From assembly GCA_965368975.1 (NCBI GenBank), contig CBDUPA010000002.1:288001-352000 (forward strand): 64,000 nucleotides of DNA, written 5' to 3'. The stretch comes from an uncultured bacterium. GTDB lineage: Bacteria; Acidobacteriota; Thermoanaerobaculia; Multivoradales; JAHZIX01. Positions 11,766 to 62,419 of this stretch are shown here, in pieces; positions within the stretch are counted from its first letter, which is position 1; each line of letters starts with the position of its first letter. The translations under genes and the position numbers were made by a program. The notes beneath the pieces were generated by a model. That model saw only the letters and a program-made list of their open reading frames with translations, made no database searches and was not told where the DNA came from.

Positions 11766-12377
11766 ATGAACACGCCGTCTTCCTCTACCTCGGATCTGTC
11801 CGTGAGCACCGCGGCACCCCGGCAGGTCTCCTTCGACGACGAACCCCTGATCCTGGTCGACGCACGAGACAACGTCCAGGGGTACCGGCCGAAGGCTGAC
11901 TGCCATGTCGGCGACGGCATCCTGCATCGAGCGTTCTCGATCTTCCTCTTCGACGCCCAAGGTCGCCTGCTCATTCACCAGCGCAGTGCCGAAAAGCCCC
12001 TGTGGCCGGGCTTCTGGACCAACAGCTGCTGTAGCCACCCGCGGCGCGGCGAGACGGTGGAAGAGGCGGCACACCGGCGGCTGCGCGAGGAGCTGGGCGT
12101 CGAAGCTGAACTGACGCGACTCTATGCCTTCCAGTACCAGGCGCGCTATCTCGACATCGGTTCCGAGAACGAGCTGTGCACCGTCTTCGTCGGGCCACTG
12201 CAAGGCGAGCCCAAGGTCAATCCCACAGAGATCGAGGAGTGGCGAATGATTTCCGCCCAGGAGCTGGACGCCGCGCTGGCCGACGACCCAGAGAGCTACA
12301 CGCCCTGGTGCCGCATGGAGTGGCAGCGCCTGCGCAACGACTTCTGGCCAAGAGTCGAAGCCCTCGTCACCAGCTGA
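11766..12377 (+). CDS. idi: Isopentenyl-diphosphate delta-isomerase, type 1
   Basis: LHRAFSIFLF, QRSAEKPLWPGFWTNSCCSHP, ENE and YTPW motifs. Confidence 0.93.
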   Translation: MNTPSSSTSDLSVSTAAPRQVSFDDEPLILVDARDNVQGYRPKADCHVGDGILHRAFSIFLFDAQGRLLIHQRSAEKPLWPGFWTNSCCSHPRRGETVEEAAHRRLREELGVEAELTRLYAFQYQARYLDIGSENELCTVFVGPLQGEPKVNPTEIEEWRMISAQELDAALADDPESYTPWCRMEWQRLRNDFWPRVEALVTS

Positions 12378-12423
12378 GATGGACCCGGCACCATGTCCAC
12401 CGGCAAAGACCGGCAGAGGCTCA

Positions 12424-13131
12424 TCAGTTGAGCATCAGGCTCTCGACTTCGGTCTCCTGACTACCCAAGTCGACGCCCATGCGCATCAGCATCAGCAGAA
12501 TCTGATGCCGCTCGCGAGCACCGGCTTCGAGCAATGCCTGTTTCTCAGCTGGCGCGAACGGCAACGCCGTGGCCAGGCCATTGACCAAGGTCTCGGCTGG
12601 TAGCTTGCGCAGTCGGTCAAGATCGAAGCTGAGCTGCTGGTCGTGGGCGAACTGCTGCAGCGCTTCGAGGAGACTGAAGGCATCGAGTTCCTCGCCAGCA
12701 TCGCTCCGGTCCTCAGCGTAGGCTCGGTAGTCGACTCGTACCCGTCGATAGAGGCGGTGCAGGGGCAGTTCCTCTTCGATGCGGAAGCGGGTCAAGCCGA
12801 CCAGCGCGATCAAGAAGCGGCCGCCCGGAATGCGCTCGCACTCTTCGATGCGGCCGGCACAGCCAACGCGATATAGACGCGGGTCGATGTGGGCCGAGTC
12901 CGGAGCAGCCTGCGCTTCGTCCACGGAAGTGGATCGAGCATCCTCGTCTTCCGGTAGGTCCAGCGGCTGCACCATGCCTATGATCGACTCGCCAGCCATG
13001 GCGTCCTCGACCATATTGCGGTAGCGGGGCTCGAAGACGTGCAGCGGCAGCCAGCTCCCCGGCAGGAGTAGAGAACCTGCAAGCGGGAAAACGGGAATCA
13101 CATCGGGCAACTGGGGCTTCGGCTCGCTCAT
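12424..13131 (-). CDS. Stand-alone Lon substrate-binding (LON_N) domain protein
   Basis: IPVFPL...LLLPG..LPLHVFEPRYRNMV and EKQALLEA motifs. Confidence 0.88.
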   Translation of the reverse strand: MSEPKPQLPDVIPVFPLAGSLLLPGSWLPLHVFEPRYRNMVEDAMAGESIIGMVQPLDLPEDEDARSTSVDEAQAAPDSAHIDPRLYRVGCAGRIEECERIPGGRFLIALVGLTRFRIEEELPLHRLYRRVRVDYRAYAEDRSDAGEELDAFSLLEALQQFAHDQQLSFDLDRLRKLPAETLVNGLATALPFAPAEKQALLEAGARERHQILLMLMRMGVDLGSQETEVESLMLN

Positions 13132-13250
13132 CAAGATCTCCAAGGCGGCATCCAGTCTACCATCGGAGATCCACCGCCGCGCCGGCTTGCGACAGGCGCT
13201 TGGGCAAGCTGCCGTATTCACAGGCGGAGCTTCCCTGGTAGACTCTTCGA

Positions 13251-13676
13251 ATGCGAGTGAATGTACGGAATGTAGACGACGTCATTATTGTGGACCTGGC
13301 AGGACGCCTGGTGGCAGGTGTGGGCGACGAACTGCTGCGGGACGTGATCAACGAGCTGCTGTCCGAGGGCTGGAAGAAGATCCTGCTCAACCTGTCCGAG
13401 GTGTCCTACATGGACAGCGCCGGCCTCGGTGAGCTGCTCGCCAGCCATCGAACGGCACGCAATCTCGGCGCGCGTATGATCACCACCAGCCTGGCACAGC
13501 GCACGAAGCGCGTGCTCCGCCTGAGCCAAATCCTGCCTCTGATCGAGGTGCACGACACCGAACAGGAAGCTCTCGAGACCTTCCGCCTGGGGGTCGAACA
13601 CACTCCGACACGGGAGATCGACCCGTTGAACGAGGAGGATGTCGATCGAGACGACGAGACGACCCCGGCATCCTGA
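13251..13676 (+). CDS. STAS-domain anti-sigma factor antagonist
   Basis: ILLNLSEVSYMDSAGLGEL phosphoserine motif. Confidence 0.9.
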   Translation: MRVNVRNVDDVIIVDLAGRLVAGVGDELLRDVINELLSEGWKKILLNLSEVSYMDSAGLGELLASHRTARNLGARMITTSLAQRTKRVLRLSQILPLIEVHDTEQEALETFRLGVEHTPTREIDPLNEEDVDRDDETTPAS

Positions 13677-47475: not shown

Positions 47476-49499
47476 ATTGGTAGATCCTTACACGTTTCTA
47501 AGCGGTCGCCCGCTCGGGTAGATGTCAAGACCCCCTTTCAAACCGTGCTTGCGGATTTCCCGCACACGGCTTACGGATGGCCTCTCGGGTCGCGGCATTA
47601 CGCAGCCTCCGGGTAGCGGATCGTGCCCATGAGCTTGTAGAGCCCGAGGTTCCAGAAGGACTCACTCGTCCAGCGGCGCGCCTCGCCCAGCTTCAGGTGC
47701 CGCCCTTTGCGCGTAAGGCGCAAGCGGCGCAGTCGTCGCCAGACGTAGGTGTCGACTTGAACGAATTGCTTGGCGGCGTTTCCCGTGCGGAAGTACTGAC
47801 TCCACCCTCGAAGCACGGGGTTGAGACTCGCGATGACATCGCGCAGATCCGCGTGGCATCGTGACCTCGGAGTCAGCTCTTTGATGCGCTGCCGTATACG
47901 CTGCATCGAGCGCTGCGACGGCCAACGGTGGAGAAAGTAGAGCCGACGCCCCGTCTTCTCCCACAATCGACCGCTCAAACGCTTGTGCAGGTGGCAGCCG
48001 AGGAAGTCGAACCCCTCCTTGCCGTCGTAGAGATTCACTCGCCTCGTCTTCTCCGGGTGTAGCTCCAGACCAAGACGTTCCAGGATCACGCGGATCCGCG
48101 CCTCGGCCTGATCGCACTGGGACTTCGTGCGACAGATCACGACGAAGTCGTCTGCGTACCGCACCAGCGTCCCCAAGGGAGCGCTGTGGCGCGTCCACAG
48201 CGTGTCCAGCACATGCAGGTAGATGTTCGACAGCAAGGGTGAAATCACACCACCCTGCGGTGTACCGACCCGCGTCGGCGACACCTTGCCGTCCTCCATC
48301 ACACCAGCTTCGAGCCACTGCCGCAGCAGCTTCAGCATCCGCCGATCCGAGACGCGCCGTGCCACCAGAAGCAACAGCTTCCGGTGGTCGATGCTCCCGA
48401 AGTAGTCCCGGATGTCGGCATCGAGCACGTGATGATGCCCCTTGGCGCCGAGCTTCCTCAGCGTCTCCAGCGCATCCGTCGCACTCCGCTTTGGCCGGAA
48501 ACCATACGAGACGGGCAAGAAATCCGCCTCGAAGATCGCCTCCAACACCAGCTTTGCCGCCATCTGGACCACACGGTCTCGTACCGTCGGGATACCCAGC
48601 GGCCGCTTCCTTCCATCTGCCTTCGGGATGTACCGGCGCAGCACCACCTCAGGCCGATACTTCTTGGCTCGCAGCGAGGAACCGAGCTCTTCCAGGAAGC
48701 GCTCGGTACCGTACTGCTCCACGTCGCCTAGCGTCGCGGCATCGACGCCCGCGGCTCCGCGGTTGGCTCGTACCCGCTTCCACGCCTCCCACAGGATGTC
48801 ATCCCTGTGGATGTGGTTGTACAGGGCGTGGAAACGCCTACCCGGCGACCGCTTGGCCGCCGCCCACAGTCGACGTTGGAGGTGGCGCACTTTCACGCTC
48901 GGCCTACGGCCGACGGGGTCGATAGGTCCGGTCTTGCCGGCCATTCCCTTGCACGTGCCTCCACCCTCGACATGACCAAACCAGGGACCCTTCCCTAAGG
49001 CGGCGTTCTTCTGCACCGCCTTCACCGGTACTACGATCCCCTCGGACTCCCGCTGCGCACGACCCGACTTCGCCTTCGGCCTATACGGGCACGCTGGCCG
49101 CGACAACGGCTGCACAGACGGGTCTCTCGTGTTCCGCGCGTCTCCTTGCACACGTGCTGCGCCCCATACCCCGCCGGCATCCGACGCAGGCTCCGGATCT
49201 GACCCCACGCCGGACATGGCCTTCGCCGTGACATGAGCGGCTCGGCTACCGAATTGTAAATCTGTCGAGGCTGCAGGCTTCACTTCATGTTGCGGCCCGT
49301 GTGCTTGCTCCCCGTCCAGCGGAAATTCTCCGCCTCCGGGCTTGTGACGCCCCGCTCGGGCAAAGGGGTCTCCCCCAAATACCTGGGGCCGGCTACTCGG
49401 CGCTCCGGCGCTTACCGAGGTGGGACTTTCACCCACTGGACACGCGCAGCGCACAGATCTCTCCCCGGAAACCAGAGTTCGATCTGTTTCACGACGCAC
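47476..49499 (-). mobile_element. Group II intron (full length)
   Basis: 5' end GTGCG at 49499. Domain V AAGCCGTGTGCGGGAAATCCGCAAGCACGGTTT at 47572-47540. Domain VI and 3' end ...CTACCAAT at 47476. Internal RT ORF present. Confidence 0.92.
47598..48944 (-). CDS. ltrA: Group II intron reverse transcriptase/maturase, no endonuclease domain
   Basis: RPLGIPTVRDR, SYGFRPKRS, GTPQGGVISPLLSNIYL, RYADD, FDFLG and maturase LNPVLRGW..YF motifs. The frame is open upstream to ATG 49502. Confidence 0.93.
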   Translation of the reverse strand: MAGKTGPIDPVGRRPSVKVRHLQRRLWAAAKRSPGRRFHALYNHIHRDDILWEAWKRVRANRGAAGVDAATLGDVEQYGTERFLEELGSSLRAKKYRPEVVLRRYIPKADGRKRPLGIPTVRDRVVQMAAKLVLEAIFEADFLPVSYGFRPKRSATDALETLRKLGAKGHHHVLDADIRDYFGSIDHRKLLLLVARRVSDRRMLKLLRQWLEAGVMEDGKVSPTRVGTPQGGVISPLLSNIYLHVLDTLWTRHSAPLGTLVRYADDFVVICRTKSQCDQAEARIRVILERLGLELHPEKTRRVNLYDGKEGFDFLGCHLHKRLSGRLWEKTGRRLYFLHRWPSQRSMQRIRQRIKELTPRSRCHADLRDVIASLNPVLRGWSQYFRTGNAAKQFVQVDTYVWRRLRRLRLTRKGRHLKLGEARRWTSESFWNLGLYKLMGTIRYPEAA

Positions 49500-49600
49500 C
49501 ATGGCCTCATTCTAGGTCCGACAACGCGTACTAGTATTGAGCCAGAAGATTCGCTAGCAAGAACATTCCCAGCGAGCCTCAGACTGATTGGGCCAATAGG

Positions 49601-55749: not shown

Positions 55750-57999
55750 ATGGATCCACCCTCTCCCTCCGTCTTCATCAGCTATAGTCACGACACCGAC
55801 GAGCACAAACAGCGTGTCCTGGCGCTGGCGGATCGGCTGCGCCAGGACGGGATCGACGCGATTCTCGATCGCTACGCGGGGTCCCCGGAGGAAGGCTGGC
55901 CGAGATGGATGTTCGGACAGATCAAGGCTGCCGACTTCGTGCTCGTCGTCTGTACCGAGACGTATTACCAGCGCTTCTGGGGCCTGGCGCTGGACGGGCT
56001 CGGTGTGAACTGGGAAGGCGCCATTCTCACTCACTCCCTCTACGCCGCCCGTAGCTGGAATCCGCGCTTCGTGCCTGTCCTCTTCGACACCGAAGACAAG
56101 TCACACATCCCCGAGATCTTCAGCGTCTCCTACTTCTCAGTCTCCACAGAAGCAGGGTATCTCGACCTCTACCGCCACCTGACAGGTCAACCCGAGACAC
56201 CGCCCCCGCCCATTGGCCCACCACGAGAACTCCCGCCGTCCGACCGCCCTGACCCCCTCTTCGAGAGCGACGAAACCCGCGGCTTCTCCAAAGAGCTACA
56301 GTCCGCGCGACAGGAAAGGAAAGCCCTGTCACTCCGAGGCGAGGACATCACTACCGTCCAGGAACGCATCCTCGACCTGAGACGCAAGCTGCGCGCCGGA
56401 CCACAGCTGCAAGCCGGGGACCTGTTGCTCGACCGCTTCGAGCTGGTGGAGGAGATCGGTCACGGCGGCTTTGCGGTGGTGTGGAAAGCCTGGGACGAGG
56501 AGGACGAGGTAGTTGTCGCGGTCAAGGTGCTGCACGGCCAGTACTGCAAAGACCGCACTCGCCGCCAGCGCTTCTTCAACGGCGCCAGGCGCATGGCGAA
56601 GTTGCACCATCCGCACGTCGTCAAAGTGCTGCACCAGAAGCAGGTCGACGATGGTCATTACTTTTTCGTGATGGAGTACCTGCCCGGTGGTGACTTCCGG
56701 CAAGCCGTCTGCAGCGGTGCTCTCTCGCAAGATGAACGCCTACAGGTCGTGCGTCAGATCGGAGATGCACTGGAATACGCCCATGAAAGACAGGTAATCC
56801 ACCGCGACGTCAAACCCCACAACATCCTGCTGGACACAGATGGCACCCCCAAGCTGACCGATTTCGACCTGGTGCGCGCGCTCGAGTCAACGCAGGGGAC
56901 CAAGACCGGCTTCTTGGGTACACCGCTGTACGCGGCACCGGAGATGATGGAACGCCCACAGGACGCAGGGCCCGCGGCGGATGTCTATGGATTGGGGATG
57001 ACGGCGCTGTTTGCCCTGGCGGAGCGGGAACTGCCGCTGTCCCTGATGCGGGGAGTCGATGCCTTCCTGGCAGACTTGCAAGCACCAGAGCCCATCAAGA
57101 AGGCAGTCCATCGGGCGGTAGCATGGAACGTCCAAGAGCGGTTCAGCTCAGTAGCGGAGTTCTGCAGCGCGTTGGAGCTGCCCCGCAAGCCGACCCGGGT
57201 GGAGCCGCAAGCTGCACGATCAACGCGACCGCGACTAGCCTGCGGGAGTACGGGAGAGATTCTGCCACCGACCCAGGTCCGCGAGCGCCAATACGGAGAA
57301 TTGGGCATCGAGCTGGTGCACGTACCGGCCGGTGTGTATCCGATGGGTGCCAAGGGCATCAAGTACGCCGAACCAGTTCACCAAGTACAACTCAGCGAGT
57401 TCTGGATCGGCAAGTACCCCGTGACCCGCGAGCAGTACGCCGCGTTTCTGAAGGCCCATCCAGATCATGCGAAGCCACTCTTGTGGACCGAGGAGGGCTT
57501 TCAGCAGCCACGTCAACCCGTGGTCGGCGTGAACTGGCACGATGCCAAAGCCTTCTGTGGGTGGATCGGCGCACAGCTCCCCACCGAGGCGCAGTGGGAA
57601 GCCGCGGCGCGCGGCCCAGAGGGTCGGCCGTATCCATGGGGTCCTGCTGAGCCGACGAAGCAACTCGCCTGCTTCGGGCAAGACTGGGAGACGGGAAGTC
57701 CGGAAGCGGTCGATGCGCTACCCGAGGGTCAGGGGCCGTTTGGCACCTGGGCTCAGGCGGGCCACGTCTGGGAATGGTGCGAGGACGGCTGGGATGAGAA
57801 TGCCTACGCCGAGCGCGCGAAACGCATTCTGGAAGATCCCGCCCATGCCGCCGACAAATCTGCGTATCGTGTGCTGCGCGGCGGGTCTTGGGCCCACCAG
57901 GCCAGGAACCTGCGGGCCGCGTCCCGGAACAGGCTCAGGGCCGACTATCGGTACCGGAGCATCGGGTTCCGTGTCTGTGTGTCGTCCTCCGAGCCTTGA
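55750..57999 (+). CDS. SEFIR/TIR - Ser/Thr kinase - FGE-sulfatase (CLec) protein; DGR target 1
   Basis: VFISYSHD...GWPRWM; IGHGGFAVV, VAVK, HRDVKPHN, DFDL; LPTEAQWE, GHVWEW, RVLRGGSW, GFR. Confidence 0.9.
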   Translation: MDPPSPSVFISYSHDTDEHKQRVLALADRLRQDGIDAILDRYAGSPEEGWPRWMFGQIKAADFVLVVCTETYYQRFWGLALDGLGVNWEGAILTHSLYAARSWNPRFVPVLFDTEDKSHIPEIFSVSYFSVSTEAGYLDLYRHLTGQPETPPPPIGPPRELPPSDRPDPLFESDETRGFSKELQSARQERKALSLRGEDITTVQERILDLRRKLRAGPQLQAGDLLLDRFELVEEIGHGGFAVVWKAWDEEDEVVVAVKVLHGQYCKDRTRRQRFFNGARRMAKLHHPHVVKVLHQKQVDDGHYFFVMEYLPGGDFRQAVCSGALSQDERLQVVRQIGDALEYAHERQVIHRDVKPHNILLDTDGTPKLTDFDLVRALESTQGTKTGFLGTPLYAAPEMMERPQDAGPAADVYGLGMTALFALAERELPLSLMRGVDAFLADLQAPEPIKKAVHRAVAWNVQERFSSVAEFCSALELPRKPTRVEPQAARSTRPRLACGSTGEILPPTQVRERQYGELGIELVHVPAGVYPMGAKGIKYAEPVHQVQLSEFWIGKYPVTREQYAAFLKAHPDHAKPLLWTEEGFQQPRQPVVGVNWHDAKAFCGWIGAQLPTEAQWEAAARGPEGRPYPWGPAEPTKQLACFGQDWETGSPEAVDALPEGQGPFGTWAQAGHVWEWCEDGWDENAYAERAKRILEDPAHAADKSAYRVLRGGSWAHQARNLRAASRNRLRADYRYRSIGFRVCVSSSEP
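57867..57999 (+). repeat. DGR variable region VR1
   Basis: 119/133 nt identical to the reverse complement of 58663-58795; differences confined to codon positions 1-2. Confidence 0.88.
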
Positions 58000-58042
58000 T
58001 TCTTGGCCCTTGGGCCTTGTTCCCCTTCCGGTTTCCCCCTCC

Positions 58043-58067
58043 GTGTTGACAGTGACACTGTCAACAC
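58043..58067. other. 25-bp palindrome downstream of VR1
   Basis: GTGTTGACAGTG-a-CACTGTCAACAC. Confidence 0.85.
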
Positions 58068-58094
58068 TCCGGCAGCATTGACAATGTCAACACG

Positions 58095-58340
58095 TCAACA
58101 ACCGAAGCCCAGAACTCCGCGCCACGAAGCCAGCGAACGCTCCAGCGTGGTCAGATCACCGCGAGCGAGCAGAGCCAGGCGCTTGCGGAACCGCTGGGTA
58201 GCCTTCTTGCCAACCTCGATTCCCTGTCGCGAGATTCGGTAGCCCAGGTACGGCTGGGTACCGATGGAGCTGCGGATGTGCCCCTTGCGAACATTCAAGG
58301 CCAGGCGGCGCTGCTGCCACAGCCAGGCCCGGACCTCGCC
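58095..58340 (-). pseudogene. C-terminal remnant of a DGR-type reverse transcriptase
   Basis: EVRAWLWQQRRLALNVRK...PYLGYRI...RFRKRL...SLASWRGVL resembles RT motifs 6/7 and thumb. No YxDD motif and no start codon of its own. Confidence 0.75.
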
Positions 58341-58537
58341 ACCGCCAAACGCGTGGCGCGCTCCTGCCGGGCCTGCGCGGCACAAATGCGCGCCTCGTTC
58401 AAGGGCAGGTCTTCGCGCTTCAGACTCCAGCGTCCATCGACCTTCCGCGCCGGAAGGTCGCCCTGGCGTATGCGGTACCGGAGCTGAAGCTCCGACTTCC
58501 CAAGCAACCGTGCGGCTTCCGACAAGGACAATTCCAT
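58341..58537 (-). pseudogene. Truncated excisionase/MerR-like HTH protein (probable DGR accessory gene N-terminus)
   Basis: MELSLSEAARLLGKSELQLRYRIRQGDLPARKVDGRW; abuts the RT remnant in a different frame. Confidence 0.7.
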
Positions 58538-58662
58538 GTCGACATTGGTAACAAAATTTCCCCGTGCACGTCAAGAACCACGATGCTACAAACCGAACCC
58601 AGCAGAATCTTAGCTTAGGAAGAAATTCTAGGCATTCCGGAACAAGGCTCAAATACCAAGTC

Positions 58663-58795
58663 TCAAAGCTCGGAGGACGACACACAGACACGGAACCCGA
58701 AGTACCGGTTCCGATCGTCGGCCCCGTACCTGTTCCGGTACGCGGCCCGCAGGTGCCAGGCCTGGGAGGCCCAAGACCCGCCGCGCAGCACACGA
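58663..58795 (-). repeat. DGR variable region VR2
   Basis: Paralogue of VR1 with the same mismatch pattern. Confidence 0.88.
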
Positions 58796-61700
58796 ACCGC
58801 AGGATCTCGACTGGTGGAGAGCGGATCTGTTGACAAAGTGTCAACACGTTTCTGGTACGCCTTCTCGTCCCAGGCATCCGCACACCACTCCCAGACGTTG
58901 CCGGCTTGGTCCAGGGTACCGAAGGGCCCAGCCCCCTGGGGATAGGCATCCACCGGCGTGGTCTTACCCACGTGGGCGTTCCAGTCGTCATCGGCAAAAT
59001 TTGCAACTTCAGGTGTTGGCTCGCCCTCACCCCACGGGTATTTTCGACCCTCTGGCCCACGCGCGGCCGCTTCCCACCGCGCCTCGCTCGGGAGTTCCAG
59101 CCCCGCCCACGCGCAGTAGGCCTGTGCCTCGTTCCAGCTCACGCCCACCACCGGTTGATCCGGCTGGTTGAACTGCTTGTCGTCCCAGATTTCCGGCTTC
59201 GGCTGGTCCGGCTTTGCCTCCAGGAACTCCTGGAACTGCGCATTGGTCACCGGGTACTTGCCGATCCAGTAGGGGCTGAGCCGCACTGCGTGGAAAGGCT
59301 TCTCGTCGTCGGTAATGTCATCAGCTCCCATCGGATACTCCCCACCGGGAACGAAGACCAGCACCGAACCGTCCTTCTCATGCACCCGCTCCTGCCCGGC
59401 CCTCGCCTCTTCCCCGCTACGCGCAGGTTCGGCGACCGGCCCCCCTGCAGGATGCGCCTCCTTGCCCAGCAGCTCCGCCGCCAGCCGCCGGACCGCCGCA
59501 GTCGCTTCCGCGTTCTCGGCCAGCCGGCCGACAATCTCGACACCGGATTCCTCGCCCACCCGAGCCTCTCGCCAGCCGCGCAATCCCCGCAGCGGGCGCA
59601 GCGCGTGGTAGCACTCGTCCGAGCTGTCCAGCCCGCGCTGCAGCGCTTCCAGGAACGGTAGCGGCGTGCTGACGTGTGCATCACGCAGGCAGTCATCGAC
59701 CAGAGAAGCGTCCTGCGCCAGCACGCCGGCACGCAAGCAGGCGTCCATCAGCGGCCGGAAGAGGGACGGCGTGCTCAGGCCCAGCGCTAGCAGGATCACC
59801 TCGCGCCACCACTTCTCCCCGAAGTGCTCGGCCAGTTCGTCCAGCCCGCCCGGTTCCCCCACGCGGTTCTGGAAATACAGAGCGCACAGATACTCCTGGA
59901 AGCTCAAGTGCAAGAAACCGTAGTTGCCCTCGCCCACTGCCACCAGAACGCCGCTCTGTTGCCGAATCTCCTCCAGCAAGCTGAGACCTTCTTCGGGATC
60001 GCGGCCCAGTTCGCGCAGAGGCTCGCGCAGCTGCTCGGCCAACTCGACGCCCGGGGCTTCCCGCTCTTCTGCGCGGTGCAGATAGTAAGCCAGCGGCTGC
60101 AGCAGGGTCATGGCTTCCTTGGCCGACAGGTCGATCCGTAGCCCCTTGGCGCCGCGCCAGGTTTCCAGCAGCACCATTACGCACTCTTCGTACAGGTCGA
60201 CGCGACGGCCCGGCAGGCTGCGACGGTCACGGTGGACGAGGCACAGGTTCTGCAGCATCAGCGGATTGGTGGCGAGCTTCCGCAAGCTCTCGGTGCGCGG
60301 ATCGTCGCCTTCGAAGATGTCGGCGCACAGGCGGTCGGCCTTGGCGTCGGCAGCGGCTTCCAGCTCGGCTTCGCCGTCCGTGGTGTCCACATCACCCAGC
60401 GTCGCCACCGCCTCGCCGACTCCTTCCAGGCGCTCGACCACCCGGTACCAATCGCGAATGAAACGCCGCGCCTCTTGCGGCTTCAAGTCCTGGACGTGCA
60501 GCTCCAGGAAGCGACCGCCCAGGCGGGCATCGCCTTGGTAGCCGGCGTAGCGACTGGTGACGACGAAGCGGCTGCGCGGGTACTGGTCCAGAGCCTTGTC
60601 CAGCCAGGCTGAAACGGCGGCACGCTCGCTCGGGTCGGCGACTTCGTCGAGGCCGTCGAGCAGCACCAGCAGGCCGCCCCGGTCACGCAGGTACTGCGCG
60701 AGCTTGCGGCAGCGCTCGGGACTCTCGGGGCCGTCGAGTTGGAAGCCCAGCGCCGCTTCGAGTGCGGCCGCGAAGCCGGCGGTGGGATCGGGCAGACGGC
60801 GCAGCTCGATCAGCACGGGGATGGTTTCCGCCGGCAAGCCGAGCGCCACCGGACCGGCCGGTTCGGTGGCCAGCTGGACGAAGTGCTTGAGCAGGGTCGT
60901 TTTGCCGCTGCCTGGATCGCCGAGCACAACGACGCCCGGTAGCTGGTAGCGCTGGGCGAGTTGCAGGGCTTGGTCGAAGGGAAGATCCCGGCGCTCGTCC
61001 TGTTGTTCCTGCGCCAACTTCCGCAGATCCCTGCGGCTGCGCACCTCACCGTGTTCTGCCTCGAACATGCTGTGCCGCACGTTGGCGCGCAGCGGCACGT
61101 AGACCTTCTCCAGCTCCAGCCCGACGCGCAGCTTGGTGACGAAGCCGGCCAGGCGCAGGTAGGCGTGCTCGGCGCGCAGGCGTTCCAGGTAGCGGGGCAG
61201 GGTTGGCGGGGCTTGTGCGGGAGGCGTCTTCGGCGCGGATGTCACCGGCTGAGCTTCGACTTCCTGAGAGCTGCTGGTTTCCAACTCCTTCAACCAGTTC
61301 AGCTGCAGCGGCCAGACGCCGTCTTCCGCATGCTTGGCCACCGGCCGCCGTACCCAGCCGCCACCGTCCGCATCAAAGCGACGCAGCCAGACCTCTCCTT
61401 GCCCTGCCATCGGCTTCAGACAGACCAGGCTGTAGCCGTTCTCGATCTTGGAGCCCTGATAGCACGCTGCCGCCGAAAAGACGACGTAGTTCCCGCCTTC
61501 CAGCGGCTCGACCCACTTTTTGTGCTCGTGGCCATGAAGCAAAAAACGAAAATCTTGTCGCAAGCCACGGCTGAAGTCGTTCTCTTCCGCCTCGACTAGC
61601 CAGTTCGGTGGATGATGTGCCAGCGCGATGCGGACATCGGCGGAGCGCAGCTCGGGGGCGAGCTTCTGCTGCTGCCAATCGCCCGCCATCCACAGCTGGC

Positions 61701-62289
61701 CCTTTTCGCCGTTGCGATGGCAGGACCAAGCGGAATTGAAACCACCGATGCCGACGCGCAAGCCGTCGAAATCGCGAATCGCCGTGTAGATCAGGTGCTG
61801 GGCGTGGTCAGCTGGCAGCAGGTGTTGATAACCGTGGCGGTTCAGCGCGTCGCGGTATGGCTTCAGCCGGACGGTGACCTGCTGCCAGTCGATACCGGCT
61901 TGCTGGACCATCTCGACGACGTCGGACAGCTCCTTCAATCCCGCTTGCCAGGTCTTGACCATGGTCGAGACCTGAGTGCGGTCGACGTCGTGGTTGCCCG
62001 GCACCAGGAAGACATTGGTCTTCAGCAGGGATGGCTCGAAGGCGGTCCGCACCGCCTCCAGGAACTTGAAGGCCACATCGAACTGGTCACGCAGGTTACG
62101 CCCCTCTTCCGGCCCCAGTTGCCCAAAGGCGAGATCCCCGGTGAAGAAGATCAGGTCCGGGCGCAATCCCTCGTCACGTTGTAAGCGTTGCAGGTCGTCG
62201 ACCAGCTTGCGCGTCACGCGTTCGGCATCCCAACCGTGCTTGGGATTGCAGGCGTGCAGATCAGAAAGGTGTAGCCAAGTCAGAAACAA
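58663..62289 (-). CDS. Metallophosphoesterase - NACHT NTPase - FGE-sulfatase (CLec) protein; DGR target 2
   Basis: HLSDLH, FTGDLA, VPGNHD, AHHPP, LHGHEH; GDPGSGKTTLL, LLDGLDE, VTSR, NPLML, FLHLSFQEY; GNVWEW, RVLRGGSW. Confidence 0.92.
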   Translation of the reverse strand: MFLTWLHLSDLHACNPKHGWDAERVTRKLVDDLQRLQRDEGLRPDLIFFTGDLAFGQLGPEEGRNLRDQFDVAFKFLEAVRTAFEPSLLKTNVFLVPGNHDVDRTQVSTMVKTWQAGLKELSDVVEMVQQAGIDWQQVTVRLKPYRDALNRHGYQHLLPADHAQHLIYTAIRDFDGLRVGIGGFNSAWSCHRNGEKGQLWMAGDWQQQKLAPELRSADVRIALAHHPPNWLVEAEENDFSRGLRQDFRFLLHGHEHKKWVEPLEGGNYVVFSAAACYQGSKIENGYSLVCLKPMAGQGEVWLRRFDADGGGWVRRPVAKHAEDGVWPLQLNWLKELETSSSQEVEAQPVTSAPKTPPAQAPPTLPRYLERLRAEHAYLRLAGFVTKLRVGLELEKVYVPLRANVRHSMFEAEHGEVRSRRDLRKLAQEQQDERRDLPFDQALQLAQRYQLPGVVVLGDPGSGKTTLLKHFVQLATEPAGPVALGLPAETIPVLIELRRLPDPTAGFAAALEAALGFQLDGPESPERCRKLAQYLRDRGGLLVLLDGLDEVADPSERAAVSAWLDKALDQYPRSRFVVTSRYAGYQGDARLGGRFLELHVQDLKPQEARRFIRDWYRVVERLEGVGEAVATLGDVDTTDGEAELEAAADAKADRLCADIFEGDDPRTESLRKLATNPLMLQNLCLVHRDRRSLPGRRVDLYEECVMVLLETWRGAKGLRIDLSAKEAMTLLQPLAYYLHRAEEREAPGVELAEQLREPLRELGRDPEEGLSLLEEIRQQSGVLVAVGEGNYGFLHLSFQEYLCALYFQNRVGEPGGLDELAEHFGEKWWREVILLALGLSTPSLFRPLMDACLRAGVLAQDASLVDDCLRDAHVSTPLPFLEALQRGLDSSDECYHALRPLRGLRGWREARVGEESGVEIVGRLAENAEATAAVRRLAAELLGKEAHPAGGPVAEPARSGEEARAGQERVHEKDGSVLVFVPGGEYPMGADDITDDEKPFHAVRLSPYWIGKYPVTNAQFQEFLEAKPDQPKPEIWDDKQFNQPDQPVVGVSWNEAQAYCAWAGLELPSEARWEAAARGPEGRKYPWGEGEPTPEVANFADDDWNAHVGKTTPVDAYPQGAGPFGTLDQAGNVWEWCADAWDEKAYQKRVDTLSTDPLSTSRDPAVRVLRGGSWASQAWHLRAAYRNRYGADDRNRYFGFRVCVSSSEL

Positions 62290-62306: not shown

Positions 62307-62346
62307 GCAGTGATGATGTAGCAGTGATGATGTAGCAGTGATGATG
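62307..62346. repeat. 14-bp tandem repeat (~2.9 copies) in a divergent intergenic region
   Basis: GCAGTGATGATGTA units. Confidence 0.9.
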
Positions 62347-62419
62347 GAACTGTGCAGCATGATACCGGATGCGGCTTGGCCGCAGGCCCGGGGGAGAGTG
62401 ATATCCTCCCCGCCAGCTC

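Follow-up and report, generated by a model that had tools for sequence, protein, structure and literature searches.

The window considered here, a stretch of 64,000 nucleotides, lies on contig C2 of a 7.1 Mb genome assembly, which comprises 59 contigs (the smallest of 2.7 kb) and is 99.3% complete as judged from marker genes. Two convergent target genes of a DGR, both uninterrupted and both encoding an FGE-sulfatase-like domain of the CLec type (Pfam E 8e-46 and 1e-54), are found in it. Target 1 (55750..57999, plus strand) codes for a protein of 749 aa with the domain order TIR/SEFIR, protein kinase and FGE-sulfatase-like, for which SEFIR, TIR_2, Pkinase and FGE-sulfatase were all above the Pfam cut-off. 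Target 2 (58663..62289, minus strand) codes for 1208 aa with metallophosphoesterase, NACHT and FGE-sulfatase-like domains (Metallophos, NACHT and FGE-sulfatase, again above the cut-off). The stop codons are at 57999 (+) and 58663 (-), and the 663 nt between them agree with the distance of approximately 660 nt given in the initial annotation. Elsewhere in the window, a group II intron RT/maturase (RVT_1 and GIIM; 47598-49502, minus strand), which is unrelated to the DGR, lies approximately 6 kb from target 1, and three tandem 14-nt units are located at 62307-62354, just upstream of the start codon of target 2.

The 3' ends of the two targets form an inverted repeat of 164 nt, the two arms of which are 87% alike. 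These ends contain VR1 (57867..57996, plus strand) and VR2 (58666..58795, minus strand). In the 130-nt core all 14 differences between VR1 and VR2 are at codon position 1 or 2. Of these, 13 can be aligned with the TR of the intact related locus L021 and every one is opposite an adenine, as compared to 13 of the 114 unchanged sites (Fisher p 5e-11). Against six other TRs, 7-12 of the 13 differences are opposite A. The differences are adenine-directed, and the two 3' ends are therefore regarded as two DGR variable regions written from one template; from these alignments, both were last written by a common adenine-mutated TR. The initial annotation had called them selected variants, which goes further than the data, as these reach only to VRs written from a common TR and to intact targets.

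In the spacer following VR1 (58000..58094, plus strand), a 3' tail is shared with VR2 up to approximately 58023; the spacer also contains TGTCAACA-type words in an array and, at 58043-58067, a perfect inverted repeat of 12 bp. The DNA fold of 57995-58100 has a z of -2.9. On the opposite side, the spacer from the stop of target 2 to the HTH start (58538..58662, minus strand) has the tail common to both VRs, together with a single TGTCGAC-type word where the HTH gene starts, and its fold is not significant (z 0.0). A CTTG-like word with a 7-nt period is located directly after both VRs (58000-58025 and 58638-58662), before the spacers diverge. In addition, an inverted word pair, TGTTGACA...TGTCAACA, of the same type as in the arrays after the VRs is present in frame within target 2 (58829-58848), just upstream of VR2.

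Two gene fragments, both on the minus strand, occupy the region between the spacers. The ORF starting at 58537 matches Pfam HTH_17 above the cut-off (E 1.6e-6, residues 3-44) and follows positions 1-66 of the family HMM (E 1.7e-25), i.e., to codon 65-66. This is the 5' remnant, 65 codons in length (58343..58537), of an accessory gene for an HTH_17 domain and a four-helix bundle; beyond it the ORF, 80 aa in total, continues out of frame for 14 further codons and ends at 58295. The two bases of the junction (58341..58342, minus strand) are followed by the 3' remnant of a DGR RT (58095..58340, minus strand), the last 81 codons and the stop, which was recognized by protein search and a family RT HMM. 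It begins approximately 15 codons past YxDD, with no in-frame start codon at the junction, and retains LGYRI and SLASWRG. On its own, the remnant had no match in Pfam or NCBIfam. In the protein search, however, it proved 54-64% identical to the C-terminal ends of 10 RVT_1 proteins, with a best E of 2e-23, and in the 330-position family RT HMM, built from nine of these ten, it corresponds to positions 252-328 (E 2.6e-30), with YxDD at approximately positions 234-237, just upstream of the retained segment. The initial annotation had described the first ~65 codons of an HTH gene joined out of frame to the last ~80 codons of an RT, without YxDD, Avd-like bundle or TR, and both the identity of the RT fragment and the rest of this description proved right. 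No Avd, TR or YxDD is left at the locus, which thus has none of the full-length RT, TR and Avd of a functional DGR.

An alignment of 12 full-length HTH homologues and the window piece served to collect related loci; the sources were species genomes, metagenomes and 300 genomes belonging to the same order. Intact cassettes have the order target, HTH-helical gene (~187 aa), separate Avd gene (~115 aa), TR, RT (~330 aa) and convergent second target. Loci L037, L021, L034 and 13 more carry the HTH gene, Avd, a full RT and a TR whose mismatches to the VR are wholly or mostly at A; the Avd of L037 matches PF22296 with an E of 2e-8, under the curated cut-off. The HTH and RT remnants match the cassettes of L021, L034 and L037, in which the TR-VR mismatches are at A only, in both order and orientation. 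Measured from HTH base 197 to the homologous RT codon in five intact cassettes, the missing length is 1762-1856 nt. By this comparison, the window has lost the C-terminal bundle of the HTH gene, all of the Avd gene, the TR and, with YxDD, codons 1-251 of the RT. The single deletion of accessory C-terminus, TR and RT core put forward in the initial annotation is supported, and since in the intact relatives a separate Avd gene follows the HTH gene, the deletion took one more whole gene than had been counted. A close relative from sludge places the breakpoint at 58341-58342, at a microhomology of 2 nt, and the comparison with intact loci called for in that annotation gives approximately 1.8 kb as removed.

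VR-bearing targets and ordered remnants of the machinery are the two criteria of a degenerate, formerly active DGR locus, and judged from the sequence the locus is one. We consider it highly probable that it was a two-target DGR whose accessory genes, TR and RT core were lost through one deletion of approximately 1.8 kb, joined at 2 shared bases, with the targets left intact and likely frozen. Two sensor-like targets would once have been diversified from an adenine-mutated TR, and the VRs would since have stayed at their last-written sequences. The deletion may have arisen by RecA-independent slippage or by microhomology end-joining. No Ku was found in the genome, and Ku-dependent end-joining was therefore rejected. 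There is no IS or MITE at the lesion: the junction joins native HTH to native RT with zero inserted bases.

The junction can also be viewed in a relative approximately 95% identical to the window, contigs of which were obtained from four sludge runs (X1-X4) of one study (share 0.11). In three of the four runs, a single contig aligns to the window in two pieces, 58043/58118-58342 and 58341-58577. The pieces end separately in run X1, and the loose letters past 58341 continue the native HTH gene in frame (reading EILQP), as those before 58342 continue the native RT in frame (reading ADDRATLRRWR). The native HTH and RT ends of the relative share only 2 bases at the position of the window junction. 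Its 1279-nt contig has 555 extra bases between the pieces where approximately 1.8 kb is needed. Judged from this length, as the middle of the 555-nt segment is unread, the relative too appears to be without approximately 1.2 kb, through a smaller deletion of its own. Beyond 58577 its spacer differs from that of the window and holds GGCAAG/CTTGCC words.

In the two remnants, 20 listed differences out of 25 between window and relative comprise 7 non-synonymous and 13 synonymous changes, where the neutral expectation is approximately 70% non-synonymous (p 0.001). The ratio is 2 to 7 in the HTH remnant (p 0.004) and 5 to 6 in the RT remnant, where the deviation is weak (p 0.09). The synonymous excess points to purifying selection on the cassette, probably during the greater part of the period since the two strains diverged. 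Both non-synonymous changes in the HTH remnant, one of them R17L in the predicted recognition helix, move the window copy off the family consensus. The deletions in the window and in the relative are probably separate and recent. A deletion made by the RT itself (from cDNA), with adenine mutagenesis near the junction, was also considered and rejected, as on inspection the 20 listed differences are ordinary transitions on both remnants.

How common such losses are was estimated from 38 distinct HTH-anchored loci, after merging of duplicates (L032, L068, L076, L051 and L052). Four loci (L030, L033, L035 and L065) were dropped because of contig ends. The 34 scorable cassettes comprise 16 intact ones, two with frameshifts only (L075 and L078) and 16 with deletions, all of which have different breakpoints; these frequencies apply to loci that have kept the HTH start, depend on how good the MAGs are, and include kindred genomes that do not count as independent. 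L025, counted as intact, has a stop inside the HTH envelope. Outside the window genome 13 of the 31 HTH-type cassettes are deleted, and within it all three are, each in a different way. Thirteen deletions are clean (the window locus, C9, C15, L022, L029, L031, L036, L039, L040, L074, L077, L080 and L082), and at the other three, L028, L079 and L081, foreign DNA is present. By eye, the foreign DNA at these three loci and at the second cassette of L078 (~12000-13300) resembles genes for an IS200-type transposase or a small endonuclease and has palindromic ends. Comparable scars, with HTH and RT joined in frame, are seen in two proteins from the databases, P0017 and P0014. At the deleted loci 24 of the 26 visible target domains are unbroken. 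The targets are not always spared: L040 has a stop in the hit, L077 has a stub, and at L028, L029 and L079 the DNA retrieved shows no target on the downstream side.

As a control, 29 canonical Avd loci of the same order were inspected, of which 26 remained after one HTH-type locus and two contig ends had been dropped. Five of the 26 have an internal RT deletion, and one more has frameshifts. Given an intact Avd, RT deletions are found in 2 of 20 HTH-type and in 5 of 26 canonical cassettes, and the idea that loss of the machinery is specific to the HTH type was therefore rejected. The canonical Avd-type DGRs with differing internal RT deletions are L087, L097, L098, L100 and L101; four of these are from one genus with near-closed genomes and intact relatives ~90% identical, which makes them suitable for a breakpoint study. 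Compared by eye with relatives 80-95% identical, the junction homologies are approximately 1-7 nt. A breakpoint hotspot near YxDD, where 4-5 of the 16 right breakpoints cluster, found no support in a scan test (p 0.08, 0.09 and 0.25 for three window sizes), which used approximate positions and left out the foreign-DNA loci, the second break of L029 and the canonical set. Nor is the break focused on the TR, as the whole TR is gone in only 9 of the 16 deletions.

The window locus would then be one case of frequent loss, in which the targets stay under selection and the machinery is dispensable, or mildly costly, in the short term. A different view of the same data is that the deletion acts as a selected off-switch: cells that destroy the machinery would outgrow those that mutate their sensors, for instance by avoiding self-reactive variants, and the machinery would be lost again and again in the short term and kept only in the long term. 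This is possible, and several observations speak for it, i.e., the 16 independent deletions among 34 cassettes with the targets mostly spared, the different breakage of all three HTH-type cassettes of the genome, the losses in the window strain and the ~95% relative, which appear to have occurred separately and to have followed a phase of purifying selection, and the ratio of 16 deletions to 2 cassettes with frameshifts only. Neutral loss under the deletion bias of bacteria, with only the targets selected, nevertheless predicts the same pattern. Point lesions of an earlier date would also disappear in a large deletion, and the unclustered breakpoints (p 0.08-0.25) give no sign of a programmed switch. 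On balance we regard selection for the loss as doubtful.

Continued diversification of the targets would require a TR and an RT outside the assembly, acting either in trans or in cis in an intact subpopulation. Both trans service and coexisting intact variants have been described, as far as the parts of that paper used here extend, in Thiohalocapsa PB-PSB1 (Dore et al., 2024; PMC10907252). The window genome itself is not without DGRs. The search for a complete DGR RT suggested in the initial annotation returned five RVT_1 matches, two of them long and of the group II type and three DGR RTs, on contigs C16, C9 and C15, none of which belongs to the subfamily of the window. C16 carries an intact canonical DGR, the RT of C9 is truncated, and that of C15 is apparently full-length. 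Contigs under approximately 2.7 kb are absent from the assembly, and its 59 contigs could therefore lack a small one with the TR, or a minority variant that is intact. Against this, a serving TR must match all the non-A sites of a VR, and the best non-self match in a scan of both strands of the whole assembly with VR1 and VR2 has 35 non-A mismatches in 130 nt. The TR region of C16 has 41 non-A mismatches to the window VRs, the TR of C15 fits just its own upstream VR, and the genome is 99.3% complete. The segments missing from the window were taken from three intact relatives as queries for tblastn and blastn, which returned only the distant RTs of C9, C15 and C16, the group II RTs and the VRs of the window; no RT, Avd or HTH C-terminus of the window subfamily was found in the assembly, and the sole Avd match in the genome is a distant one on C16. 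Service in trans, named as an alternative in the initial annotation, is thus not supported by any sequence in this unclosed assembly, as none templates either VR, and ongoing diversification by whichever route is improbable.

Two other, paralogous HTH-type cassettes are present in the genome. That on C9 (139286-140531) is without Avd, TR and RT start, and that on C15 (7636-6040) without the HTH C-terminus and Avd. Across RT and spacer the two are identical for 1099 bases, and of the four VRs only one is matched by the TR of C15; gene conversion or mis-paired flanks are therefore possible. Further FGE-domain genes, 50-63% identical to the window targets, are found at C1:74449-75126, C37:7661-6969 and C49:9686-10372, with no DGR cassette in the DNA viewed and with ends unlike VR1 and VR2.

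The chance that the window junction is an assembly artefact is very small. It is known from the assembly rather than from the source reads, and the identical C9/C15 tract is a place in the same assembly where flanks could have been mis-paired. The two sides of the junction, however, share only 2 bases, which is far under the k-mer or overlap length of any assembler and cannot produce a mis-join. Moreover, the missing 1.8 kb is nowhere else in the assembly, the non-synonymous changes in the HTH remnant (R17L included) leave the consensus as expected after a real inactivation, and similar scars are present in genomes of 1-3 contigs (L087, L097 and L098). Least credible of all is a functional HTH-RT fusion or minimal element, expressed for instance via frameshifting, for although HTH-to-RT-tail joins recur (in frame near RT codon 250 in P0017 and L040, at ~260 in L022 and at ~158 in P0014), the frame is not conserved (the window, L022 and L074 are out of frame), the left breakpoints are spread over HTH codons 39-178, YxDD is missing from the RT tail, and the seeming concentration of right breakpoints has no statistical significance.

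The accessory HTH protein, of which only the head survives in the window, was studied through a predicted structure of an intact homologue (pLDDT 86.8). In this model the N-terminal domain resembles BldC/RacA (Foldseek probability 1.0, with E above 0.1), and Foldseek against PDB gave no match at E <= 0.001. For the C-terminal four-helix bundle the best match is Xcc0516 (Z 14.4), and the same bundle superimposes on bAvd (4DWL) over 94 residues with Z 11.2 and an rmsd of 2.0, as compared to Z 12-13.4 for unrelated helical bundles. The Pfam bAvd model had no match to the HTH proteins P0011 or P0020. The models are thus only suggestive of a second Avd-like bundle at the C-terminus; possibly, such an HTH-Avd-like protein and the separate Avd form a mixed Avd oligomer with a DNA-binding head.

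The spacers after the VRs are rich in short words. In 30 cassettes without an RT.RA-type helix (mostly RQ.RY), RACA/TGTY words reach median densities per 100 nt of 4.6 in the upstream spacers (n=25) and 6.2 in the downstream ones (n=17); after the TR and in HTH coding DNA the density is 0.7. In eight RT.RA-type cassettes GGCA/TGCC words dominate, with 3.3 and 4.3 per 100 nt and 0.7 after the TR; the words were picked post hoc, and the RACA versus GGCA contrast amounts to one phylogenetic split. Two of the three TGTYRACA clusters in the genome are at the window locus, and both GGCAAG clusters are at C9 and C15. A reading of the arrays as genome-wide MITEs was dismissed, as word clusters are almost only at DGR loci in this genome. 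The sequences suggest that the arrays are candidate binding sites of the HTH protein, with the word type varying with the recognition helix, and that the protein may serve as a DNA tether. Since a promoter would not be expected between convergent 3' ends, the location of the downstream array there would favor marking of the target over transcriptional control. A wider proposal would be that the machinery is a disposable module, deleted repeatedly to lock working sensors so that near half of the cassettes are dead, and that in living cassettes the HTH-Avd-like protein tethers RT-Avd at the arrays after the VRs; taken as a whole this is rather speculative. Within the literature covered, with subscription journals and the supplementary figures of PMC10907252 outside its scope, nothing was found on a DGR accessory gene combining HTH and Avd fold or on the frequency of cassette deletion.

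The DGR of BPP-1 (mtd-avd-TR-brt) has one target and one Avd. The Avd-TR-RT order and the adenine-specific TR-VR differences are common to it and the intact relatives of the window. Unlike BPP-1, the family of the window has two convergent targets and an extra gene for HTH and four helices, and the window copy is dead. Closer counterparts are the DGRs of Thiohalocapsa PB-PSB1 and clade 5D, which, in the sections of the paper considered here, likewise have two CLec-type targets with NACHT, TIR, kinase or metallophosphoesterase domains and several loci per genome, some of them without RT or TR (Dore et al., 2024; PMC10907252). The same sections describe two-target DGRs, degenerate loci without RT or TR, a variant of DGR 7 from which the RT is deleted, and both trans-served VRs and orphan VRs with no matching TR. 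Of the clade 5D traits given there, two targets with a single CLec each are present in the window; the central STAND NTPase common in that clade is represented by NACHT in target 2, and target 1 has TIR-kinase instead. By target architecture, rather than by a placement of its RT on the clade tree, the locus is a dead DGR of the clade 5D type. Decay in PB-PSB1 is attributed to transposons and MITE-like arrays (Dore et al., 2024; PMC10907252), whereas the junction in the window is a clean one, formed at 2 nt of microhomology with nothing inserted. The sections of that paper considered here give no cross-genome frequency and mention no HTH and Avd-fold gene ahead of a second Avd.

Loss of the machinery with retention of the target has also been reported, in the portion consulted, for Epsilon crAss-like phages, where the RT is "fragmented or deleted" in many relatives (PMC11054128); unlike the window locus, these are phages with a single receptor-binding target, and no breakpoints were mapped in that portion. 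In a GenBank survey over half of the candidates were discarded as broken or incomplete (Wu et al., 2018; PMC5758913), i.e., such loci were excluded rather than analysed, and the terms "deletion" and "helix-turn-helix" are absent from the main text. The accessible parts of Roux et al. (10.1101/2020.04.01.020958) and of a Bacteroides preprint (10.1101/2024.11.15.621889) contain nothing on deletions, and a theory preprint, as far as its available part goes, raises the loss of DGR activity as an open scenario (bioRxiv 10.64898/2026.02.18.706561). Broken DGRs are thus already known; in the present set, nearly half of the cassettes are without their machinery, each through a deletion of its own.

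As a single locus, the one in the window is an ordinary dead DGR, and its value is comparative. Approximately 45% of the cassettes carry independent deletions of the machinery with the NLR-like and TIR-kinase sensors kept, which makes them natural, breakpoint-dated replicates. These bear on the question of when hypermutation pays its cost, as treated in the part of the theory preprint at hand (bioRxiv 10.64898/2026.02.18.706561). Surveys of DGRs that are anchored on the RT miss many loci of this kind, in which frozen targets remain. Finally, how DGRs may recognize their DNA targets could be tested by way of the HTH-Avd-like protein and the arrays that co-vary with it next to both VRs.
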